Below, piece after piece: positions 30,442 to 51,307 of a stretch of DNA of 51,307 nt (its first letter is position 1; each line of letters starts with the position of its first letter). The position numbers and the translations under genes were made by a program. Source of the stretch: Spirochaetota bacterium (GTDB lineage: Bacteria; Spirochaetota; UBA4802; JAFGDQ01); NCBI GenBank assembly GCA_043803405.1, contig JAZDKB010000039.1, forward strand, positions 1 through 51,307, read 5' to 3'. A model generated the notes under the pieces. It searched no databases. It saw nothing but the letters and a program-made list of their open reading frames with translations, and was not told where the DNA came from.

Positions 30442-31632
30442 TTAAAAACGTATTCCTGTCGGCTTTTTGTTTTTACTGTCCCAGAAAGGCGAAATTTCGA
30501 GCAGCCTTTCGATTATGGCAGGCAGCACGGACAGCGTATAGTCTATCTCTTCTTCAGTAGTGAACCTGCTAAGGCTGAACCTTATGGAACCGTGCGCAGA
30601 AGTAAAGGGAACGCCCATCGCCCTTAAAACGTGCGAAGGCTCAAGCGAGCCGGATGAGCACGCGGAACCCGATGATGCTGCAATGTTTTTTTCGTTCAGG
30701 TAAAGCAGTATCGATTCGCCCTCAATATACTCAAACCCTACATTGGTTGTGTTGGGCACACGCCTGTTTTTTGCGCCGTTAAGCCCGCAGTTCGCAAATT
30801 TTTTAAGTATACCGCTCTCGAGCTTATCACGCAGTTCCTCTATTCTTTGTTCTTTGTCCATATTTTTTAAAACAAGCTCCGCGGCCTTGCCCATGCCTAT
30901 AATGCTGGCCACGTTTTCAGTACCGGGCCGAATGCCCTTTTCCTGATGCCCGCCGTGCAGGAGAGGCTGTATCTTTGTACCCATCTTAATATAAAGCGCA
31001 CCGACTCCTTTCGGAGAATGAAATTTGTGCCCCGAGATAGAAAGCATGTCGCAGTTTATTTTTTTTACATCTATCGGAATTTTACCTACAGCCTGAACAG
31101 CATCTATGTGAAACGGAACATTCTTCTCTTTAAGAAAAGCGCCTATCTCTTCAACAGGGAAAATGACGCCGGTTTCATTATTCGCATACATAATGGAAAC
31201 GACCGCAGTGTCGGCATCCACAGCTTCCTTCAGCTTGTCAAGGTTCAGGAGCCCTTCACGGTCTACAGGTATGTATGTGACGCGGTAACCGTCTCTCTCG
31301 AGCTTTTTGCACAGGTTAAGCACGGCCGGATGCTCAACCCTGGAAGTAATGATATGCTTTTTATCGTGATTCTGCGTCAATACGCCCATGATCGCCATGT
31401 TGTCGCTTTCTGTGCCGCAGCTCGTGAATACGATCTCGCGCTCGTGCTCTGCGCCCAGCATCTCAGCTACCTGCATCCTCGCTTTCGCGATAGATTTCGC
31501 AACGCTGCCTCCGAAATCGTACATGCTCGAAGGATTGCCATAGCGCTCGCAAAAATATGGCAGCATCTCCTCAAGCACAAGCGGGTCAACCATCGTAGTC
31601 GCGTTATTATCAAGATAAATTATTTTTTCCAT
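30442..31632 (-). CDS. nifS: Cysteine desulfurase NifS/IscS
   Basis: YLDNNATT, SGHKFHSPKG, SSGSACSSGSLEPSHVL. Confidence 0.95.
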   Translation of the reverse strand: MEKIIYLDNNATTMVDPLVLEEMLPYFCERYGNPSSMYDFGGSVAKSIAKARMQVAEMLGAEHEREIVFTSCGTESDNMAIMGVLTQNHDKKHIITSRVEHPAVLNLCKKLERDGYRVTYIPVDREGLLNLDKLKEAVDADTAVVSIMYANNETGVIFPVEEIGAFLKEKNVPFHIDAVQAVGKIPIDVKKINCDMLSISGHKFHSPKGVGALYIKMGTKIQPLLHGGHQEKGIRPGTENVASIIGMGKAAELVLKNMDKEQRIEELRDKLESGILKKFANCGLNGAKNRRVPNTTNVGFEYIEGESILLYLNEKNIAASSGSACSSGSLEPSHVLRAMGVPFTSAHGSIRFSLSRFTTEEEIDYTLSVLPAIIERLLEISPFWDSKNKKPTGIRF

Positions 31633-31685
31633 ATAAATAAGCCCTCTCGGAAAGTAACCTCACCTCCATAACATTCCTGCTCATG

Positions 31686-31753
31686 ACCCCTTCTGGCCTG
31701 ACGGCCATCTCCCCCTTAATAAGGGGGAGAAACCGCGAAGCGGCAGAGGGGGT
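31686..31753. repeat. Nested REP-like palindrome between nifU and nifS
   Basis: Outer ACCCCTTCTG/CAGAGGGGGT enclosing GGCC-tgac-GGCC, CTCCCCCTT-aat-AAGGGGGAG and CCGC-gaa-GCGG. Confidence 0.6.
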
Positions 31754-31792
31754 TAATAAAGAATATTACGGGGCGAAGTTTATATATATATT

Positions 31793-32632
31793 TTACTTCT
31801 GCTCAATCACCTCTATGTCGCTCTCGACAAACTCTCTCAGCTTTTCCTGTACAAGGTGTTTTAGTGTGACGCTGGAAGCAACACAACCCGAGCAATGCCC
31901 GCGAAGCGACACATAAACCTTTTTATTATCAACGTCCACAAGCTCAATGTCACCGCCGTCCTGCTGAAGCTGCGGCCGTATAACGTCACTGATCGTTTTC
32001 TCGACAAGCTGCATTCTCTTTATGTTGGAAAGAGGCGCTTTCTTCTCCGGCGTTTCGGATTTTACCGAAATATGCAATTCCTCCTCAAGTATCCTTTCGA
32101 TATCGGGAATGCACGAGCCGCATCCGCCGCCTGCCTTGGTATAATTCGTAACATCCTCAACAGTTTTTAAATTATTCTCGTGGATTGCTTTTCTTATCAA
32201 TTGATCCGTAACCCCGAAACATTTGCAGATTATTTCGCCTTCCTGTTCAAGCTTGTCCGGCATCTTAATCCCTTTGTAAGATGCTATGGCTTTTTCAAGA
32301 GCCTCGCTTCCCATTACAGAACAGTGCATTTTCTCTTCCGGCAATCCGCCCAGGTAATCCACAATGTCTTTATTGGTAATTTTTTGTGCTTCCTCGAGCG
32401 TTTTTCCCTTTATCATCTCAGTGAGGGCTGAAGAAGAAGCAATGGCGCTTCCGCATCCGAATGTCTGGAACTTTGCGTCCGTGATGACATTGTCTTTTAT
32501 TTTAAGGAATACTTTTAAAGCGTCGCCGCATACAAGGCTGCCCTCTTCACCGACTGCATCAGCGTCCTCAATTACGCCCACGTTTTTGGGATTCTTGTAC
32601 AGTTCCTTTACTTTATCTGAATAATCCCACAT
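31793..32632 (-). CDS. nifU: Fe-S scaffold NifU (three domains)
   Basis: [28 protein letters not shown]...GCGSC; DGGDIEL...GHCSGC. Confidence 0.95.
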
Positions 32633-42124: not shown

Positions 42125-42288
42125 CTAGTGCTTAGACCGTATGATCTTGAATTAAAAATATTTTAAATCTTGCCACAGAGTCACAGAGATACTGAGTTTT
42201 TTTATTATAAAAATAATTAATTTATCTTCTCTGTGACTCCGTGTCTCTGTGGCAAATTCAATTTGAATTTATACAGTCAAGACACTAG
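42125..42288. mobile_element. 164-bp MITE-like element bounded by CTAG
   Basis: Imperfect terminal inverted repeats CTAGTGCTTAGACCGTAT / ATACAGTCAAGACACTAG; internal inverted repeat TTGCCACAGAGTCACAGAG / CTCCGTGTCTCTGTGGCAA; left end recurs at 17751-17795. Confidence 0.6.
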
Positions 42289-42444: not shown

Positions 42445-42549
42445 ATGTTAAATAATAAATACAAAATATTTATTTTGTCTCATTGAGAGATTTATCGGGA
42501 GCCCGTGCGGTTTCCCTTAATGCATCTTACCGCCTTACTCACGCCCTAG
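42445..42549 (+). CDS. Putative Sec-containing leader peptide 1: MLNNKYKIFILSH-U-EIYREPVRFPLMHLTALLTP
   Basis: In-frame TGA 42484-42486; SECIS-like hairpin 42497-42516; 20 more codons to TAG; same layout in copies 2 and 3. Confidence 0.7.
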
Positions 42550-42623
42550 TGCCTCAGCTCACCTCCTGAGATACCGGCGCCGAAAAAGGCGGCCGGATTT
42601 TTAATATCTTAAGGAGGTTTTAA
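42484..42623 (+). promoter_or_regulatory. Attenuator-like structured leader, copy 1
   Basis: SECIS-like hairpin; CTCAG/CTGAG hairpin; anti-SD ACCTCCT 42561-42567; GC hairpin 42574-42596; SD AAGGAGGT 42611-42618. Confidence 0.8.
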
Positions 42624-43169
42624 ATGTTAAACAATTTAAAAAATTCAATATCGTCCAAACGGACGAAATGCGCTTCAGTTATCACGCTTTTTATAGTAAT
42701 AGCGTTCGTGCTTGCAGGATGCGCATCATTCCCGCCTTACGGCACATCCACAAAAGGCCTTGAACTGCCTATTGAAAAGGCGACTCTTAAGTTCATGGAG
42801 GATGTAAAAGCCGGCGGATACAAGATCGTAAATACAAGCGAGCTGAAGAAATGGTATGCCGAAGGCAAAAAGATGATCGTCATCAGCACGTTTCCGCCGG
42901 CGGACGACAAAGCATTGGGTACTCTTCCCTCTGCTGTAAGCGGCCCTATGCCTATGACGGAAAAAGAAGTTACCCAGGCAGTGAAGGACGGCATAATTAA
43001 GACAGCAGGCAAAGATAAGGATATGACTATTGTTGTGTATTGCGGTTTTGTGGCCTGCAGAAGGAGCCATCTGGGAGCAAAGACGCTCGCGGAAAGCGGA
43101 TATAAAAATGTTTACCGCTATCCTGGAGGCATTGCGGGCTGGAAGGAAGCATCTGCTCCTGCAAAATAA
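42624..43169 (+). CDS. Rhodanese-domain lipoprotein (sulfur/selenium transferase-like)
   Basis: Lipobox LAGC; IVVYCGFVACRRSH; VYRYPGGIAGWK. Confidence 0.88.
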   Translation: MLNNLKNSISSKRTKCASVITLFIVIAFVLAGCASFPPYGTSTKGLELPIEKATLKFMEDVKAGGYKIVNTSELKKWYAEGKKMIVISTFPPADDKALGTLPSAVSGPMPMTEKEVTQAVKDGIIKTAGKDKDMTIVVYCGFVACRRSHLGAKTLAESGYKNVYRYPGGIAGWKEASAPAK

Positions 43170-43187
43170 TTATTGAAAATATATTTG

Positions 43188-43222
43188 TGCCGGATAGACC
43201 GCTTTATGCGGTTTATCCGGCA
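43188..43222. terminator. Long hairpin after the rhodanese gene
   Basis: TGCCGGATAGACCGC-tttat-GCGGTTTATCCGGCA. Confidence 0.6.
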
Positions 43223-43232
43223 TTATGCAACC

Positions 43233-43691
43233 ATGAAGAAATTACAAATATCTCTTTCTTTTATATTGGTTTTTCTAGCTGTGTGTTGCGCCGGAAAACA
43301 GATAGAAGATGATAAGATAAAAAGACAAATAGATGTCTTTGGCGTTTATCTCTCTTCCAGTGTTGAGTATAAAGAAATTAACGGCGACCCTGCGGTTGAG
43401 GAATCGTGCTCATGTTCCGATGGATATGATCTCAATTTTGATGTACTTGATATAACAATCGGATATACGGCAAACAAAAAAATAAGAAAGATCACTACAT
43501 ATAATCCGGGTACAAGCATGTTCGGCATACGGCCGGGCATGTCTTTCAGCAGCAGCAGGCAAAAGATACTTGATGCTGGATTTAGCGAATCCGGCCGGTC
43601 TTTTATGTTCACTAACGGCAGGTATTTAGTTACTTTTCTTGTTGAGAAGAAGGATGATATTTTCGGGCTGATTATTGAAACGGCCGAATAA
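43233..43691 (+). CDS. Hypothetical exported/lipoprotein
   Basis: MKKLQISLSFILVFLAVCC signal; start moved from TTG 43173 to ATG 43233. Confidence 0.6.
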   Translation: MKKLQISLSFILVFLAVCCAGKQIEDDKIKRQIDVFGVYLSSSVEYKEINGDPAVEESCSCSDGYDLNFDVLDITIGYTANKKIRKITTYNPGTSMFGIRPGMSFSSSRQKILDAGFSESGRSFMFTNGRYLVTFLVEKKDDIFGLIIETAE

Positions 43692-43727
43692 AATTATATT
43701 TAAAGTTAAATTAAAAACAAAAACACG

Positions 43728-43835
43728 ATGTTAACAAAACAAAAAATCAAAATATTTATCGCGTTACAGTGAGCAACGCTTAGGAAGCCGGTGCGGCTTC
43801 CTAATATTGTCCTAACCGCCATAACTACGCCTTAA
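43728..43835 (+). CDS. Putative Sec-containing leader peptide 2: MLTKQKIKIFIALQ-U-ATLRKPVRLPNIVLTAITTP
   Basis: In-frame TGA 43770-43772; perfect hairpin 43780-43804; 20 more codons to TAA. Confidence 0.7.
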
Positions 43836-43912
43836 AACCTCAGTCAACCTCCTGAGATTCCGGCGCCTAAGCAGGCGGTCGGGATTTTAATATCATAAGG
43901 AGGTATTCAATT
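43770..43912 (+). promoter_or_regulatory. Attenuator-like structured leader, copy 2
   Basis: Same motif order as copy 1; anti-SD 43847-43853; SD 43897-43904. Confidence 0.8.
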
Positions 43913-44057
43913 ACTAAACAATCAAGAAGTTTGTTATCGGGCTGTAAATCCGTACGGCTACTATACGCTTTTTCCAGTGATATAATCTACAGGGAAGATT
44001 ATATTATGGCAAAGATTAATAATAATTTTATTATAAAATGAATTACAGGAGAGTAAA

Positions 44058-46754
44058 ATGAGTGATACCTTTATATTAAACGGAGAAGAAACGCCATTTA
44101 AGCAGGGTCAGATGATTCTGGAAGCGGCGCAAAATGCCGGAATCAAAATACCTACTTTATGCTATCTGAAAGGAACTACGCCTACCGGCGCATGCAGGGT
44201 TTGCCTGGTAGAAGTCAAAGGCGCGCGTTCGCTGATGGCATCATGTTCCACTCCGGTTACACCGGGGATGGAAGTAAGGACGGATAGCGGTCTTGTCCAT
44301 AGAGCGCGAAAAATGAATATTGAACTGCTGCTTGCCGGCGGCAGGCATAATTGTCTTGTCTGTGAAGCAAATGGCGATTGCCACCTGCAGGATCTGGCAT
44401 ATTCCTATAAAATCACCAATTTACGATTTAAAGAAAAAGAACGAAACAATATTTATCCGACAGAGGATCAAAACTCTTTCATTATCCGTGATTTTGGACG
44501 TTGTATCCTTTGCGGACGCTGCGTTCAGGCATGTAACGAGCTTGTAGTAAACCGCGCAATCTCGCAAGGCTATCGCGGTTCCGAAAGCAAAATTGTTACA
44601 GGCGGCGATCTGCCGTACGATAACAGCGAATGCGTATTCTGCGGTCAGTGCGTGCAAGTATGTCCTGTCGGAGCGCTGACGGAAAAGAAAGGCAAGGGAC
44701 TGGGACGATCATGGGAAGTCAAAAATGTCCGCACGACGTGTCCTTACTGCGGCGTAGGATGCCAGCAAAACCTTCATGTCAAGGGTGACCAGATAGTAAA
44801 AATTACAGCTGTTGAAGACGGTGCGCCGAACTATGGCAGATTATGCGTTAAAGGACGCTTCGCTTATGATTTCATTTACTCAAAAGACAGACTTACAACT
44901 CCGCTGATTCGTCAGAAAAACGGAGAGTTCAAGGAGGCTTCCTGGGACGAAGCGCTTGACCTTGTAGCGAAAAAATTCACAGAAATAATAAAAGAATCCG
45001 GCCCGGATTCAGTTGCCGGTATCAGCTGCGCTCGCAGTATCAATGAAGATTCTTACAATATGCAAAAGCTGTTCAGAGCCGTTTTCCAGACAAACAATAT
45101 CGACCATTGTGCCCGTGTCTGCCATGCGCCTACAGTCGCAGGTCTTGCAGCATCGTTCGGATCAGGCGCTGGCACCAACTCGATCAGCGAGTATAAAGAT
45201 GCAAAGATGTTCTTCATTATCGGATCGAACATGACAGAAGCTCATCCGGTTGCCTCCTATTATGTAAAGCAGGCAAAATTGAAGGGTGCAAAACTCATTG
45301 TTGTGGATCCCAGATACCACGAACTGGCAAAGATGTCTGATATTTATGCACAGATCAAGGTTGGTTCTGATGTGGCCTTTTTGAACGGCATAATGAATGT
45401 CCTGATAAACGAGAATCTGTACGACAAAAAATTTGTTGCTGATAACTGTACTGGCTTTGAAGATCTTAAAAAGACAGTCATGAATTATACGCCCCAAAAA
45501 GCAGCCGAGATAAGCGGAGTACCTGCTGAACAAATAATCCAGATAGCTCATCAAATGGCTGCCATAAGGCCGTCAATGCTGATTTACACATTGGGAATAA
45601 CGGAGCATTCCTGCGGTACAAACAACGTAATGAGCTGCGCCAATCTCCAGATGCTGCTTGGAAACATGGGCATTGAATTTGGCGGCGTAAACCCGCTTCG
45701 CGGACAGAACAACGTACAGGGCGCCTGCGACATGGGCGCGTTGCCGGTTGTTTTCCCTGGTTATCAGAACGTAACCGTGCCCGAGAACAGAGAAAAATTC
45801 ATAAAGGCATGGGGAGTTAAAAATCTTCCGGACAAGCCGGGATTGATGATAAACGCCATGATGGAAGGATTGCTCACCAAAAAAATACGGGCACTTTGGG
45901 TGTTCGGGGAAAATCTGGCCAATGCAGAGCCGAATATTACCCATACTGAAAAATGCCTGAACTCTGCCGAGTTTTTAGTTGTGCAGGATATTTTTCCAAA
46001 TGAAACGACAAAATTTGCTCATGTAATTCTTCCTGCCGCTGCATGGTGTGAAGACGAAGGAACATTCACAAGCCTGGAAAGGCGCGTAAGCATGGTAAGA
46101 AAGATAAAAGAAGCTCCTGGTATTGCGAAACCGGATTGGTGGATATTCAAGGAAGTCGCCAGGAAGATGGGACATGACTGGGCATCAAACAGCGCACGGG
46201 AAATCTGTGACAATGAACTGGCCGTATTGTGCCCGATGTTTGCAGGAATTAAATTTTCCAGGATTGAAAAGGACGGACTGCAATGGCCGTGTCCCGGCGA
46301 AGAACATCCCGGCACGCCGATTGTTCATAAAGACGGGAAATTCACCCATGGGAAAGGAATAATGAAAGGCATCGAATGGACCCCGCCGGAGGAAATCGCA
46401 GACAAAGATTATCCGTTGGTTTTGAGCACAGGCAGAAGGCTTTCCCAGTATCATACAAGAACGCAGACCGGCCGAAGCGGCATGGATGCTATTTACAGCC
46501 AGGAAACCGCCGATGTTTCCATTGCTGATGCAAGGGAAAAAGGAATAAAAGATGGAGAAATGATTGTCGTGAAATCCAGACGCGGGAAAGTAACTGTTCC
46601 TGCCCGGGTTACAGATGAAGTCCCCAAAGGCGTTGTCTGGATGACATTTCATTACCGCGACGGAAATTGCAACTGGCTTACCAATAATGCGTATGATACT
46701 GTAACAAAGACGCCTGAATACAAGGCCTGCGCGGTACAGATTGAAAGAGTTTAA
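44058..46754 (+). CDS. fdhF: Cytoplasmic Mo/W-bisPGD formate dehydrogenase alpha subunit, Cys-type, with N-terminal Fe-S domains
   Basis: IPTLC, GACRVCLV, CILCGRCV, CPYCGVGC, NIDHCARVCHAP, PLRGQNNVQGACDMG, TPEYKACAV; no Tat signal. Confidence 0.93.
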   Translation: MSDTFILNGEETPFKQGQMILEAAQNAGIKIPTLCYLKGTTPTGACRVCLVEVKGARSLMASCSTPVTPGMEVRTDSGLVHRARKMNIELLLAGGRHNCLVCEANGDCHLQDLAYSYKITNLRFKEKERNNIYPTEDQNSFIIRDFGRCILCGRCVQACNELVVNRAISQGYRGSESKIVTGGDLPYDNSECVFCGQCVQVCPVGALTEKKGKGLGRSWEVKNVRTTCPYCGVGCQQNLHVKGDQIVKITAVEDGAPNYGRLCVKGRFAYDFIYSKDRLTTPLIRQKNGEFKEASWDEALDLVAKKFTEIIKESGPDSVAGISCARSINEDSYNMQKLFRAVFQTNNIDHCARVCHAPTVAGLAASFGSGAGTNSISEYKDAKMFFIIGSNMTEAHPVASYYVKQAKLKGAKLIVVDPRYHELAKMSDIYAQIKVGSDVAFLNGIMNVLINENLYDKKFVADNCTGFEDLKKTVMNYTPQKAAEISGVPAEQIIQIAHQMAAIRPSMLIYTLGITEHSCGTNNVMSCANLQMLLGNMGIEFGGVNPLRGQNNVQGACDMGALPVVFPGYQNVTVPENREKFIKAWGVKNLPDKPGLMINAMMEGLLTKKIRALWVFGENLANAEPNITHTEKCLNSAEFLVVQDIFPNETTKFAHVILPAAAWCEDEGTFTSLERRVSMVRKIKEAPGIAKPDWWIFKEVARKMGHDWASNSAREICDNELAVLCPMFAGIKFSRIEKDGLQWPCPGEEHPGTPIVHKDGKFTHGKGIMKGIEWTPPEEIADKDYPLVLSTGRRLSQYHTRTQTGRSGMDAIYSQETADVSIADAREKGIKDGEMIVVKSRRGKVTVPARVTDEVPKGVVWMTFHYRDGNCNWLTNNAYDTVTKTPEYKACAVQIERV

Positions 46755-46764
46755 TTGAAGCAGC

Positions 46765-46797
46765 AAACCTTCCCGCTGCAAAAAGCGGGAAGGTTTT
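46765..46797 (+). terminator. Rho-independent terminator after fdh
   Basis: AAACCTTCCCGCT-gcaaaa-AGCGGGAAGGTTTT. Confidence 0.75.
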
Positions 46798-46852
46798 ACA
46801 AAATCGAATATATTATATGAGGAGTTAAATCAATTTTAACGTTTAATAAATT

Positions 46853-46960
46853 ATGTTAACCGGACAAAACAACAAAATAATTTTTTCCCAATATTGAGAA
46901 ACAGACCGGAAGCCCGTGTGGTTCCATAATATGTTTCCAGCCGCCTTAACTACGCCATAG
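46853..46960 (+). CDS. Putative Sec-containing leader peptide 3: MLTGQNNKIIFSQY-U-ETDRKPVWFHNMFPAALTTP
   Basis: In-frame TGA 46895-46897; hairpin 46908-46925; 20 more codons to TAG. Confidence 0.7.
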
Positions 46961-47038
46961 AACCTCAGAATACCTCCTGAGATTCCGGCGCCGGAAAAGG
47001 CGGCCGGACTTTTAATATCTTTATGGAGGTTTAAAATG
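46895..47038 (+). promoter_or_regulatory. Attenuator-like structured leader, copy 3
   Basis: Same motif order; anti-SD 46972-46978; GC hairpin 46984-47008; SD GGAGGT 47025-47030. Confidence 0.8.
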
Positions 47039-47152
47039 TTAAACAATCGCAAAAGTTTACTGTCGTGCTGTCGAACCGCACAGTCGCGATTCGTATCTTT
47101 CATTAATATAATGAACAGGGGGATTATGCTATGGAAAACGAACTATTGCTAA
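47036..47152 (+). CDS. 38-aa second uORF overlapping the hdrA start (possible translational coupler)
   Basis: Strong SD + ATG TTA AAC AAT, as at the rhodanese start; ends at TAA 22 nt inside hdrA in another frame. Confidence 0.45.
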   Translation: MLNNRKSLLSCCRTAQSRFVSFINIMNRGIMLWKTNYC

Positions 47153-50100
47153 AAGAAAAAATGCAGGAGCTTTACCGAACTTTTGGAGAGAGCAATTTTG
47201 GCGATGTTATGATAGTAGGCGGAGGGATCAGCGGCATTCAGGCAGCGCTCGATCTTGGAACCGCTGGATTTAAGGTTTACTTTGTCGAAAAATCACCGAC
47301 TGTAGGCGGCAAGATGGCCCATCTTGACAAAACATTCCCTACCAATGACTGTTCTATGTGCATTGAATCCCCTAAGTTTGTTGAATGCAACAGACATCCT
47401 AATATTGAGATCATGTCCTATTCTGAAGTTGAACGCGTAGAAGGGGAAGCGGGAGATTTCAAGGTTACTGTGATTAAGAAACCGAGATATGTAGACGAGG
47501 CTAAATGCACGGGTTGTACTGTATGTGTAGAGTACTGCCCGGTTAAGTACCCTGATGATTTTAACCAGAATATATCGAATAACAAAGCAATTCATATTTA
47601 TTTTGCCCAGGCTATTCCTTTAAAGCCTTACGTAGATGAAAGCTGTCTTTACCTTAAAGAAGGTAAATGCCGTATGTGCGAAGGAGTATGTAAGAATAAT
47701 GCAATAAATTTTAACCAGGTACCGGAGAAGGTTGAAATAAAAGTAGGGGCAATAATATTATCTCCTGGCATTGAGGCATTTAATCCTGAGATAATGAAGG
47801 AATACCATTACGGCGACTTTAAGAATGTTGTGACTGCCCTTGACTACGAAAGGCTGTTATGTGCCACCGGGCCGTACGAAGGCGAGATATTGCGTGCTTC
47901 AGACAAAAAGCATCCGCATAATATAGCATGGATTCACTGCGTCGGTTCCAGAAATGCTACAGAAGGGTCTAATAGTTATTGTTCGTCTGTGTGCTGCACA
48001 TATACCCAGAAACAGGTTATACTTACAAAAGACCATGACGGGGACGCGAAGTGCACTGTATTCCATAACGATATCCGTTCCTTTGGCAAGGATTTTGAGC
48101 GGTTTTACCAGAGAACAGCGGACCTTTCAGGGGTCCGCTTTTTCAAAAGCTATGTATCGATAATGAAAGAAGATCCGATAACCAGGAATGTAACAATACG
48201 GTATTATACACCGGATGAAGGGCTAAAAGAAGAAGAATTCGATATGGTAGTATTATCTGTCGGATTGGCTCCGCCTGCCAATGTTCAGAACCTGGCAAAT
48301 GTATTCGGGATAGAACTCAATTCCCACGGATTCTGCAAAAAAAATCCTATGAATCCAATGGAGACAACACGTCCGGGGATTTTCGTAAGCGGGGCATTCC
48401 AGGGGCCTATGGACATCCCTGAGGCGGTTCTATCCGCCAGCGGAGCAGGTTCTCAATGCGGCGAGCTCCTTTCCTACCGGAGGGGGAACCTTTCCAAAGC
48501 TAGGGTATACCCGCCGGAAAAGGATGTATCCAGTGAAGAACCAAAGATAGGAGTCTATGTGTGTCATTGCGGAGCCAATATAGGAAGGATAGTAAATGTA
48601 CCTTCCACTGTTGAGTATTCCCTTACATTGCCGAATGTTGTCCACGCAGAGGAAAGCCTCTTCATTTGTTCTACCGAAGCAGCCGCGATGCTGGCAAAAG
48701 ATATCAAAGAAAGAGGGCTTAATCGCGTAATTGTCGCTGCATGTACGCCCAGGACACATGAGCCGTTATTCAGGGATACGCTTCGTGAAGCCGGAATTAA
48801 CCAATATTATTACGACATGGCAAATATAAGAGAACATTGTTCGTGGGTACACTCAAAAGAGAAGGAAGCTGCAACACAAAAGGCAAAGGATATAATCCGG
48901 ATGTCGGCAGCGCGTGCCTGCTTTCTGGAGCCTTTGCAGGAATTTGAGCTGCCAGTCAATAAAGTTGCCATAGTAGTCGGCGGCGGCGTAGCAGGCATGA
49001 CCAGCGCTCTCTCCATAGCCAGGCAGGGACACGAGGTTCATTTGATCGAAAAGGAAAAACAGCTTGGAGGACTGGCGCGTAAACTTCATTACACCATGGA
49101 AGGACATGATGTCCAGGCATTCCTGAATGATCTTATAAAAAAGATTTATAAAAATCCTTTAATACATGTATACACAGACGCATCCATTCCGGAAGCTTCA
49201 GGTTATGTTGGAAATTTCATTACAAAAGTAAAGTCCGACAGAGGGATCGTAGAGATAAAACACGGAGCGATAGTCATTGCTATAGGCGCTGACGTTTATA
49301 AACCCACTGAATATCTTTATGGGCAGGATGACAGGGTGTTAACCCAGCTTGAGCTGGAAGAAAAGATAACCAATAAAGATGAAGTGATAAAAAATGCAAA
49401 AAATACTGTGATGATCCAGTGCGTAGGCTGCAGGAATGAAGAAAGAAATTATTGCAGCAAGATATGCTGCGGAGAGTCTGTAAAGAATGCCTTAAAACTG
49501 AAAGAAATAAATCCTGAGATGGATATCTACATACTATTCAGGGATATGAGAACATACGGATTTAATGAGGATTATTACAGGGAAGCAAGAGGCAAAAATG
49601 TAAGATTTATCCGTTATGAGACGGATGACAAACCCCTGGTTGAAGCTGTTAAGGAAAACGGCAAGAGTATTCTTAGGATTACCGTAACAGATCAGACATT
49701 AAATAAGAAGGTAGCCATAGATGCCGATGTGATTGCCCTGGCTGTGGCAATAATTCCATCTGCCGGCAGCCAGGAAATATCACGGTTGTTTAAAGTGTCT
49801 ATGGGGCCGGATGGTTTCTGCCAGGAGGCACATGTTAAATTAAGGCCTGTTGACTTTGCCGCGGAAGGCGTTTACCTGTGCGGTATAGCGCATTACCCCA
49901 AGCTTATATCTGAAACTATCAACCAGGCTTACGGGGCAGCAGGACGTGCATTAACTCTTCTTGCAAATGATACTGTCGTGGCATCGGGCTCTGTTTGTAC
50001 TGTAGATGAAAAAATGTGTATGGGATGTGGGGCATGTGCTCCTGCGTGTACATATAACGCGGTAACGCTTAACGAAACAAAACAGGGAAGAAAAGCCTCG

Positions 50101-50226
50101 GTTATCCCTGTGCTTTGTAAAGGATGCGGTCTTTGCAACTCAAAATGTCCGACAGGGGCTATACAGCTGAAGCATTATACCGATAAAGAGCTTTTCGGCC
50201 AGATTCTTGCCGGTCTTTCCGAATGA
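47131..50226 (+). CDS. hdrA: Heterodisulfide reductase subunit A-like flavo-iron-sulfur protein with duplicated FAD modules
   Basis: GGGISG, LDKTFPTNDCSMC, CVGSR...YCSSVCC, VYVCHCGANI, ANIREHCSWVH, second GGGVAG, EAHVKLRPVD, C-terminal ferredoxin. Confidence 0.93.
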   Translation: MENELLLKEKMQELYRTFGESNFGDVMIVGGGISGIQAALDLGTAGFKVYFVEKSPTVGGKMAHLDKTFPTNDCSMCIESPKFVECNRHPNIEIMSYSEVERVEGEAGDFKVTVIKKPRYVDEAKCTGCTVCVEYCPVKYPDDFNQNISNNKAIHIYFAQAIPLKPYVDESCLYLKEGKCRMCEGVCKNNAINFNQVPEKVEIKVGAIILSPGIEAFNPEIMKEYHYGDFKNVVTALDYERLLCATGPYEGEILRASDKKHPHNIAWIHCVGSRNATEGSNSYCSSVCCTYTQKQVILTKDHDGDAKCTVFHNDIRSFGKDFERFYQRTADLSGVRFFKSYVSIMKEDPITRNVTIRYYTPDEGLKEEEFDMVVLSVGLAPPANVQNLANVFGIELNSHGFCKKNPMNPMETTRPGIFVSGAFQGPMDIPEAVLSASGAGSQCGELLSYRRGNLSKARVYPPEKDVSSEEPKIGVYVCHCGANIGRIVNVPSTVEYSLTLPNVVHAEESLFICSTEAAAMLAKDIKERGLNRVIVAACTPRTHEPLFRDTLREAGINQYYYDMANIREHCSWVHSKEKEAATQKAKDIIRMSAARACFLEPLQEFELPVNKVAIVVGGGVAGMTSALSIARQGHEVHLIEKEKQLGGLARKLHYTMEGHDVQAFLNDLIKKIYKNPLIHVYTDASIPEASGYVGNFITKVKSDRGIVEIKHGAIVIAIGADVYKPTEYLYGQDDRVLTQLELEEKITNKDEVIKNAKNTVMIQCVGCRNEERNYCSKICCGESVKNALKLKEINPEMDIYILFRDMRTYGFNEDYYREARGKNVRFIRYETDDKPLVEAVKENGKSILRITVTDQTLNKKVAIDADVIALAVAIIPSAGSQEISRLFKVSMGPDGFCQEAHVKLRPVDFAAEGVYLCGIAHYPKLISETINQAYGAAGRALTLLANDTVVASGSVCTVDEKMCMGCGACAPACTYNAVTLNETKQGRKASVIPVLCKGCGLCNSKCPTGAIQLKHYTDKELFGQILAGLSE

Positions 50227-50350
50227 GGAGATGGCATAGTAAATCAATGCAATGGCTGGAGAGCTATAGGACAGAAATATGTCCAGCAGGGCGGACAGCT
50301 GATCTTCCCTGGAATAGTGATTTAAAATTAATAAAGGAGGTAAAATAAAA

Positions 50351-51196
50351 ATGAGTTCAGAAGGTAAATTCACGCCAAAGATGTTAGGTATAATCTGTAA
50401 CTGGTGCTGTTATGGGGGAGCTGACCTATGCGGAGTTTCGCGCTTTCAATATCCTACTTATATTAGATTGATAAGGGTGATGTGCTCAGGCAGGGTTGAC
50501 CTGAAACACATATTTCTTGCTTTTGCGAACGGAGCGGACGCGATGTTTGTCGGCGGATGCCATATTAATGACTGCCATTATAATCCGGAAGGAAATTATG
50601 ACGCGCTTAGTATGGTAAATCTATGCAGGAAATTGCTGGAACACATTGGAATAAACCCGAAACGCTTAAGACTGGAATGGGTATCGGCAGGTGAGGGTAT
50701 CCGTTTCGCAAATATTATGAATGAATTTGCCAAAGAGATTGAGGGTTTGGGGCCTTTGGGCAAAAGCGAAGGAATAGATGCGAATGAATTAAAATCCAGA
50801 GTTGAGGAAATCACAAAGCTCATCCCGTACTTTAAACTGGTAAAAATGAAGGAACTGGCGCTGCATAATCAGGATCAGGAATCGTATACTAAACTTTACA
50901 CAACTGAAGAAGTGGAAAAACTAATCCGCGAAGTACCTGCTTACTATATCGAACCGGAGAAATGCCAGGCATGTATGACCTGTGCCAGAAGATGCCCAGC
51001 AGACGCGATAATAAGCGCAAAGCAGGAAGTGCATATAATAGATCAGGAAAAATGCATAAAATGCGGGACATGCATAGAAGCCTGTCCGCCGAAATTCAAG
51101 GCAATTACAAAGATAGTTGGTGCACCTGTTCCGCCATCACTTCCTGAAGGAAAAAGAGCCGTAATCAGAAAGAGTAAAGAAAAAGAGGTTGCATAA
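50351..51196 (+). CDS. mvhD: MvhD/FlxD (2Fe-2S) subunit fused to a C-terminal 2x[4Fe-4S] ferredoxin
   Basis: CNWCCYGGAD, RVMCSGRVD, GCHINDCHY, WVSAGEG; CQACMTC...CP, CIKCGTC...CP. Confidence 0.9.
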   Translation: MSSEGKFTPKMLGIICNWCCYGGADLCGVSRFQYPTYIRLIRVMCSGRVDLKHIFLAFANGADAMFVGGCHINDCHYNPEGNYDALSMVNLCRKLLEHIGINPKRLRLEWVSAGEGIRFANIMNEFAKEIEGLGPLGKSEGIDANELKSRVEEITKLIPYFKLVKMKELALHNQDQESYTKLYTTEEVEKLIREVPAYYIEPEKCQACMTCARRCPADAIISAKQEVHIIDQEKCIKCGTCIEACPPKFKAITKIVGAPVPPSLPEGKRAVIRKSKEKEVA

Positions 51197-51199
51197 CCT

Positions 51200-51307
51200 A
51201 TGACAGAAGCAGTGATAAATTTAAATGATAAGAGTTATAATTTTAGTAATGCCATGGTAGCAGTTGGGGGAGTTGATGTTTGTTATTGCTACCAGTGCGG
51301 TAAATGC
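51200..51307 (+). CDS. 5' part of an HdrC/HdrD-like Fe-S protein (truncated by window end)
   Basis: MTEAVINLNDKSYNFSNAMVAVGGVDVCYCYQCGKC; CYQCGKC motif; GAGG SD upstream. Confidence 0.7.
   Translation, partial: MTEAVINLNDKSYNFSNAMVAVGGVDVCYCYQCGKC

Follow-up and report, generated by a model that had tools for sequence, protein, structure and literature searches.

The trp and his leader-peptide attenuators consist of an upstream open reading frame (uORF) with a control codon and of mutually exclusive helices, and plentiful charged tRNA turns the operon off. The leaders described here precede operons on a 51,307-nt contig of a Spirochaetota bacterium (assembly GCA_043803405.1, JAZDKB010000039.1; called the window, it is the entire contig C39 of the source genome G000, which is 3.98 Mb in size and 94% complete). 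They resemble the trp and his systems by a conserved uORF with a control codon and by mutually exclusive helices, one strand of which would lie under the terminating ribosome. They differ in that the control codon is a stop, UGA, which would be recoded by a selenocysteine insertion sequence (SECIS) and SelB, and a shortage likely releases the ribosome instead of stalling it. Furthermore, the leaders precede genes for isoenzymes and uptake instead of a biosynthesis pathway, and an intrinsic terminator is only putative. We regard it as probable that the window holds Cys duplicates of selenoprotein subunits encoded on contig C4 of the same genome, and that each of their operons is led by a uORF with a UGA, likely acting as a selenocysteine (Sec)-sensing attenuator.

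The mycobacterial Cys ribulon, as outlined in the accessible part of its report (10.1101/834739), is similar in that several operons have a common sensory short ORF, probably leaderless, with the downstream ribosome-binding site sequestered. Yet it senses cysteine by runs of sense codons and stalling, while the Sec leader has one UGA and a SECIS. The archaeon Methanococcus maripaludis has Sec/Cys isoenzyme pairs and the LysR repressor HrsM, and its selenium sensing was stated to be unknown in the available passages of PMC11097638. Like in the window genome, Cys isoforms occur there beside Sec forms, and putative transporters also rise on selenium depletion; in contrast, the repressor acts at the DNA level and there is no leader ORF. 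Closer in lineage is the spirochaete Treponema primitia with fdhF-Sec and fdhF-Cys, where the Cys transcript goes up on selenium limitation and translation through UGA and SECIS controls transcription (PMC3892789, accessible part). In T. primitia the UGA and SECIS are within the Sec gene and read-through means on, and no mechanism for the Cys gene is given in that part of the paper, whereas in the window a dedicated uORF would invert the signal. Thus, taken by itself the pairing of Cys and Sec forms adds one more case to a phenomenon known from Methanococcus and Treponema, and the leader is the more interesting part. The selenium sensing by which prokaryotes turn on their Cys isoenzymes has not been settled, not even for Methanococcus; a leader reading the supply of Sec-tRNA directly would, if the reading is true, answer it for these bacteria by a protein-free circuit. 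A Sec-codon leader attenuator was not found described in the literature searched, which missed most subscription journals and supplements, and the accessible parts of PMC13188914 and 10.1101/2022.07.06.499078 make no mention of a leader or of attenuation.

A sequence-only reading of the window had taken the genes behind the leaders for Cys versions of selenoprotein families with Sec paralogues elsewhere in the genome. A tblastn search of the genome with four window proteins found such paralogues on C4 for three of them:

44058..46754, + strand: FdhA, Cys form, with N-terminal Fe-S domains; TIGR01591 above cut-off; C355 at 45120-45122
47131..50226, + strand: large HdrA (BamE-type), Cys form; C77 at 47359-47361
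50351..51196, + strand: MvhD/FlpD domain and two 4Fe-4S (BamF-like), Cys form; C19 at 50405-50407

The twins have a TGA opposite C355 of FdhA (G000:C4:208375-211068, 73% identity), opposite C77 of HdrA (G000:C4:215462-218593, 71% identity, NDCSM-U) and opposite C19 of MvhD (G000:C4:218651-219505, 63% identity), and clear hairpins are located downstream of the UGA in fdhA and hdrA of C4. The machinery for Sec insertion was present with selA, selB, selC and selD clustered at C26:6378-12215, all over cut-off; selD itself contains a UGA. A short selD fragment with TGA by a yedE-like remnant (G000:C13:39401-39544) is apparently a decayed selenium operon.

The motifs quoted in the earlier reading were all found in the window, i.e. 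CNWCCYGGAD and GGCHINDC in MvhD, VCHCGANI in HdrA, and the TGC at 45120-45122 that encodes C355 within the FdhA segment NIDHCARVCHAP. As stated there, FdhA, HdrA, MvhD and the fourth protein, a rhodanese, contain no internal TGA and each ends with a terminal stop alone. The assignment of Sec sites was right in two of the four implied positions, FdhA C355 and MvhD C19 (CNWCC). The second MvhD site, C70 in GGCH, is Cys in the C4 twin, and a stop in this column was seen in one instance, the MvhD of another genome (L126). Likewise, HdrA had been assigned Sec at VCHCG, where the C4 twin has Cys; in 8 of 14 related HdrA loci a stop occupied the C77 column, whereas no stop was seen in any C480 column that aligned. 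C74xxC77 and C16xxC19 agree with the CxxU motifs that the accessible part of PMC13188914 gives for HdrA and MvhD.

The window HdrA is a 1031-aa HdrA-family protein that scores under the cut-offs of the methanogen models. At 47350-47390 its Cys form reads CSMCIESPKFVEC vs. CSMUILAPKLVEV in the Sec form, and additional cysteines by the swapped site were present in 4/4 leader-led copies. In MvhD (50396-50410) the Cys form CNWCC replaces CNWUA of G000-G002, again with an additional Cys beside the swapped site. These cysteines are possibly compensatory. Directly after the Cys codon of FdhA, a weak SECIS_2 match (45115-45169, 23.9 bits vs. a cut-off of 70) is perhaps a SECIS relic or merely a protein constraint. 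The leader-led Cys HdrAs from four genomes grouped in a single clade (100/100) surrounded by Sec forms, and the stem of the Cys FdhAs was longer than that of the Sec FdhAs next to them. Both trees, which were midpoint-rooted and without a clade test (that of FdhA a quick tree, in which L109 is mislabelled, as it has no internal stop), fit an origin of the Cys forms from Sec forms without proving it. Cys at such a site alone is unremarkable; the pairing with Sec twins and leaders exceeds chance.

On C4, hdrA(U) and mvhD(U) are adjacent to bamB- and bamC-like genes and adjoined by fdhA(U). The bamB-like product matches BamB (PDB 4Z3W, E 4.8e-293; overall similarity only was scored). BamE and BamF of the class II benzoyl-CoA reductase BamBCDEF are selenoproteins. 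The C4 locus resembles this system by its bamB-, bamC-, hdrA(U)- and mvhD(U)-like genes, and the window has Cys copies of the last two. It differs by the adjoining fdhA(U) and by duplication of Sec-bearing subunits only. Because the bamB-like gene and the bamC-like ferredoxin neighbour are each single-copy in the genome, the window duplicates solely the Sec-bearing subunits of C4. By sequence, C4 carries a putative locus of the formate dehydrogenase/class II benzoyl-CoA reductase type, whose three selenoprotein subunits have their apparent Cys duplicates in fdhA, hdrA and mvhD of the window.

Three leaders are present in the window:

42445..42549, + strand: uORF 1; ATG, 13 codons, UGA at 42484-42486, 20 codons, TAG
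42497..42515, + strand: SECIS-like hairpin of leader 1; stem of 7 bp beginning at +11, loop of 5 nt with GU at +18
42574..42596, + strand: switch hairpin of leader 1 (OFF fold); anti-Shine-Dalgarno (anti-SD) on one side, SD 42612-42617 on the other
43728..43835, + strand: uORF 2; ATG, 14 codons, UGA at 43770-43772, 20 codons, TAA
43783-43801, + strand: SECIS-like hairpin of leader 2
43860..43882, + strand: switch hairpin of leader 2
46853..46960, + strand: uORF 3; ATG, 14 codons, UGA at 46895-46897, 20 codons, TAG
46908-46925, + strand: SECIS-like hairpin of leader 3
46985..47007, + strand: switch hairpin of leader 3

Mean column identity of the three was 81%. A fourth copy was detected on contig C15 (E 1e-30), with the next-best match in the genome at E 1.1. 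All four have an ATG, 12-14 codons, a UGA, a 7-bp hairpin from 11 nt later and a TAA or TAG 20 codons past the UGA. The hairpin fits the bacterial SECIS criterion, as roughly 11 nt separate its start from the in-frame UGA and its short apical loop contains a G. Its stem at +11 to +17 and loop at +18 compare with loops at +18, +19 and +23 in the genuine SECIS elements of selD, fdhA and hdrA of the genome. Identity with a known riboswitch or T-box was rejected, as no Rfam family matched any leader with E up to 5.

A covariance model yielded a set of 28 copies from 19 genomes, 26 of them from 18 of the 122 genomes of the order and two from a deltaproteobacterial metagenome-assembled genome (G122), in whose phylum the model matched 3 of 151 genomes. 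Outside this set, L099 (G123) has the same anatomy, and L100 (E 3e-4) was left out. The UGA was present in 28/28 leaders, always with a distance of exactly 20 nt between the TGA and the downstream loop, which is partly circular because the TGA belongs to the model. Two further results are independent of it. In 27 of 28 leaders an in-frame ATG was located 10-15 codons upstream of the UGA, compared to 0/28 in each other frame; the 28th has GTG. When a pattern lacking the TGA was used, 5/5 leaders with support from a hidden Markov model carried the TGA vs. 1/24 chance matches. The read-through part had 20 codons in 21/28 leaders and 17, 21 or 25 in the remainder, and the SECIS stem was 95.7% paired across copies.

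Pairing is possible between the final uORF codons and each arm of a GC hairpin that is located 25-50 nt beyond the stop, although the sequences vary from family to family. With one leader per genome (n = 19) this antiterminator duplex had -22.1 vs. -18.0 kcal/mol for permuted pairs, and 0/20000 permutations were as good, as opposed to 3596/20000 for an upstream control duplex. Pairing of anti-SD and SD, in the 24 of 28 leaders with an SD-like match, had -12.6 vs. -10.8 kcal/mol (0/20000). These tests treat related genomes as independent, and kinship weakens them. Two rival helices covary across the leaders. When the nascent transcript was folded with the RNA masked to the uORF stop, the mean probability of the switch hairpin was 0.93-0.95, and it was 0.14 with the RNA masked to UGA+12; a ribosome modelled at the UGA abolished the hairpin in 24/28 leaders. 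Therefore, read-through would correspond to OFF and release at the UGA to ON.

From this anatomy we infer that the uORF is translated, that Sec is inserted at its UGA and that control runs as follows. A ribosome would start at the ATG and arrive at the UGA, where the SECIS hairpin would stand at its mRNA entry. Given Sec-tRNA and SelB, it would proceed for 20 more codons to the stop and cover the strand from about +44 to +72, the putative antiterminator for the GC hairpin; the hairpin and its anti-SD:SD extension would then form and the operon would be off. Without selenium the ribosome would be released at the UGA, the freed strand would capture the hairpin arms during transcription, the anti-SD would be enclosed and the operon would be on. 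Selenium starvation would thus be expected to induce the Cys genes. The same putative switch heads probable selenium-acquisition genes, i.e. the rhodanese, on C15 a double-cubane reductase, a TIGR01977 desulfurase and yedF, and in a relative a sulfur-transport-family gene.

In G000, 4/4 leaders precede Sec-free genes and none is located on C4 or C26. A leader before the Cys and not the Sec copy was found for fdhA and hdrA in G001 and G002, which are of the same genus, and for hdrA in G122. The other leader of G122 is followed by a Cys HesB, and no leader was detected upstream of its Cys fdhA genes. G005 and G006 have a close hdrA in the Sec form only, and their leaders head double-cubane and sulfur-transport-family genes. 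The 28 targets comprise 14 double-cubane starts (several of them broken), eight Cys forms of selenoprotein families (the Cys HesB included), one rhodanese, one DUF169, two sulfur-transport-like genes, one of unassigned family and one leader for which none was found. On C15 the leader heads a same-strand run of a double-cubane reductase, an activase, a metNIQ-like ABC transporter, nifB/H/D/K-like genes, a second double-cubane gene, a TIGR01977 desulfurase and yedF. The label of a selenium-free backup regulon given in the earlier reading therefore fits fdhA, hdrA and mvhD with their Sec twins; it does not fit the rhodanese, which has no Sec twin, nor the leader-led double-cubane/cysteine-desulfurase/yedF operon of C15. 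The leader-led set probably consists of backups plus genes for selenium scavenging. In L161:12955-20000 (G002:C49) a leader is followed by tandem DUF169 genes and then ABC-transporter genes, a candidate selenium-uptake operon.

Like the kinship of the genomes compared, several results weigh against the attenuator reading. The window uORFs have no SD, so a leaderless start has to be assumed. In full-length equilibrium folding the OFF fold was mostly favoured in both states, with the SD freer in 2/28 and the hairpin lost in 14/28 leaders. When the nascent ON fold, 0-9 kcal/mol above the minimum, was locked, mean SD accessibility was 0.35 and exceeded 0.5 in 3/21. Because the OFF fold dominates at equilibrium and the SD is seldom free, the switch would have to be kinetic; in such a switch even inefficient Sec insertion could latch the message OFF. 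A terminator scan flagged 0/3 window hairpins, and U-tails are limited to 2-7 U in 9 nt across copies (5-6 in the window). In leaders directly next to their gene the anti-SD helix is strong and the U-tail sometimes missing, and those far from their gene (G000, G001, G002, G122) keep 4-7 U, yet the simple scan calls no terminator there. Rho is present in the genome. Moreover, fdhA and hdrA begin 175 and 123 nt past the switch hairpin, each with its own SD. Translation of a linker frame might have bridged this distance:

43910-44041, + strand: linker frame, ATT start, 43 codons, 6 nt after the switched SD; ends 19 nt before fdhA
47036..47152, + strand: linker ORF, 38 codons, ATG 6 nt after the switched SD; ends 19 nt inside hdrA

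Such frames were not seen in 10 related leaders; as they reach the gene start in 2/12 cases, both in the window, a linker-ORF relay was rejected as a general mechanism. With respect to distribution, selA was present in 18/18 leader-bearing genomes of the order, and family f3 had neither selA (0/12) nor a leader (0/12); because selA occurs in 100/122 genomes of the order in any case and related genomes do not count as independent, this association is a weak test. A leader-led twin of the HesB selenoprotein on C4 was not found in G000, and the motif was absent within 450 nt at 20/20 further double-cubane loci, in a strict scan that also missed 3/10 loci from leader-bearing genomes.

The missing SD and the conserved SECIS-like hairpin would also suit a protein-binding switch, in which SelB-GTP-Sec-tRNA on the hairpin represses without read-through; the E. 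coli selAB leader, reportedly described by Thanbichler and Boeck in 2002, is said to be a precedent for repression by bound SelB. We consider this very unlikely, because the hairpin is more than 100 nt away from the SD without overlap with the switching strands, and because the in-frame ATG (27/28 vs. 0 and 0) and the frame-keeping lengths need translation. Alternatively, a transcription factor or another signal such as sulfur or a substrate may control the Cys copies, with the leader as a copied, near-functionless remnant of the double-cubane operon leader. Remnants of the donor gene's first codons in leader copies, the lack of called terminators and the precedent of HrsM in Methanococcus (PMC11097638, accessible part) speak for it. 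Yet ATG, UGA, SECIS stem, stop and both helices were kept in 7/7 fdhA and hdrA leaders of four genomes while the spacer letters diverge, which renders a mere remnant unlikely.

Finally, the uORF might sense Sec in the opposite direction, with selenium turning the operon on, or merely damp expression, the Cys copies serving another purpose. The dominance of the OFF fold at equilibrium in both states is in line with this, and yedF, the desulfurase and the double-cubane proteins could equally handle selenium and be wanted when it is present. On the other hand, the antiterminator strand lies under a ribosome that has reached the uORF stop, the nascent hairpin is lost in the UGA state, and eight targets are Cys forms of selenoprotein families; the corresponding isoforms rise on selenium limitation in T. 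primitia and M. maripaludis according to the accessible parts of PMC3892789 and PMC11097638. An opposite direction or mere damping is therefore most improbable in our view, and we favor the Sec-sensing attenuator that is off upon read-through.

Behind some hdrA leaders decayed double-cubane start codons are found, which suggests the double-cubane operon as the donor of the leader. MSDHTYM* precedes hdrA in L097, and MLNN before the window hdrA resembles the rhodanese start. In L074, L079, L082 and L086 (G056, G071, G069, G064) the leader and the downstream genes remain, but the double-cubane gene that follows the leader has an internal deletion or an interruption. The nif-like cluster with metNIQ of the C15 operon spans L022:6356-10963 (G000:C15:22355-26965). 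Its D-like subunit matched PDB 9FMG and 9D9U at E 1e-134 vs. 1e-34 for true nitrogenases. Both entries are labelled 'Nitrogenase'; we take them to be methylthio-alkane reductase. It is conceivable, though doubtful, that isoenzyme genes received their uORF with UGA and SECIS as a copy from the double-cubane operon and that it serves as a kinetic latch, with a metastable ON state that one read-through turns OFF. Such a Sec ribulon would define a selenium-starvation programme. Its double-cubane reductase, its rhodanese lipoprotein and its methylthio-alkane-reductase-like nitrogenase homologue with the MetNIQ transporter would scavenge selenium from organoselenium compounds. Used as a label for selenium-starvation genes, the leader would point to double-cubane reductases and to the nitrogenase-like cluster; the tie of double-cubane reductases to selenium was previously only statistical, judging from the accessible part of 10.1101/2022.07.06.499078.

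The remaining genes near the leaders are:

42624..43169, + strand: rhodanese-domain probable lipoprotein; PF00581; CxxxxC at C140/C145; probable S/Se carrier
43173..43691, + strand: ORF without known family, probably cotranscribed with the rhodanese
51200..51307, + strand: HdrC/BamD-like gene, start only, as the contig end cuts the gene; label inferred from resemblance to a 383-aa gene in L159/L162

The claim that the rhodanese, too, is the Cys version of a selenoprotein could not be upheld. The gene is single-copy in the genome by tblastn, and none of its 35 homologue matches (4 + 31 in 122 + 301 genomes searched) had an internal stop; no convincing leader was seen at four homologue loci inspected. 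Its spacing CxxxxC is compatible with the UxxxxU listed in the accessible part of PMC13188914, as compared without alignment. The match to NF045694 (TsoB) was weak with 66.7 bits, far under the cut-off of 805, and a TsoB-type rhodanese selenoprotein was rejected on account of this score and the lack of a Sec form. Pfam and NCBIfam profile searches gave no match for the ORF at 43173..43691.

The last 141 nt of the window (51167-51307) are identical to the end of C4, and the rest of the HdrC/BamD-like gene is absent from the assembly. An inversion between the Sec and Cys operons was not supported, as other genes follow in G001 and G002; a collapsed repeat is the more likely cause. An imperfect long inverted repeat at 42164-42245, between alanine dehydrogenase and leader 1, is the source of spurious miRNA-family matches. 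The minus strand at 30442-32632 encodes a probable nifS- and nifU-like pair.

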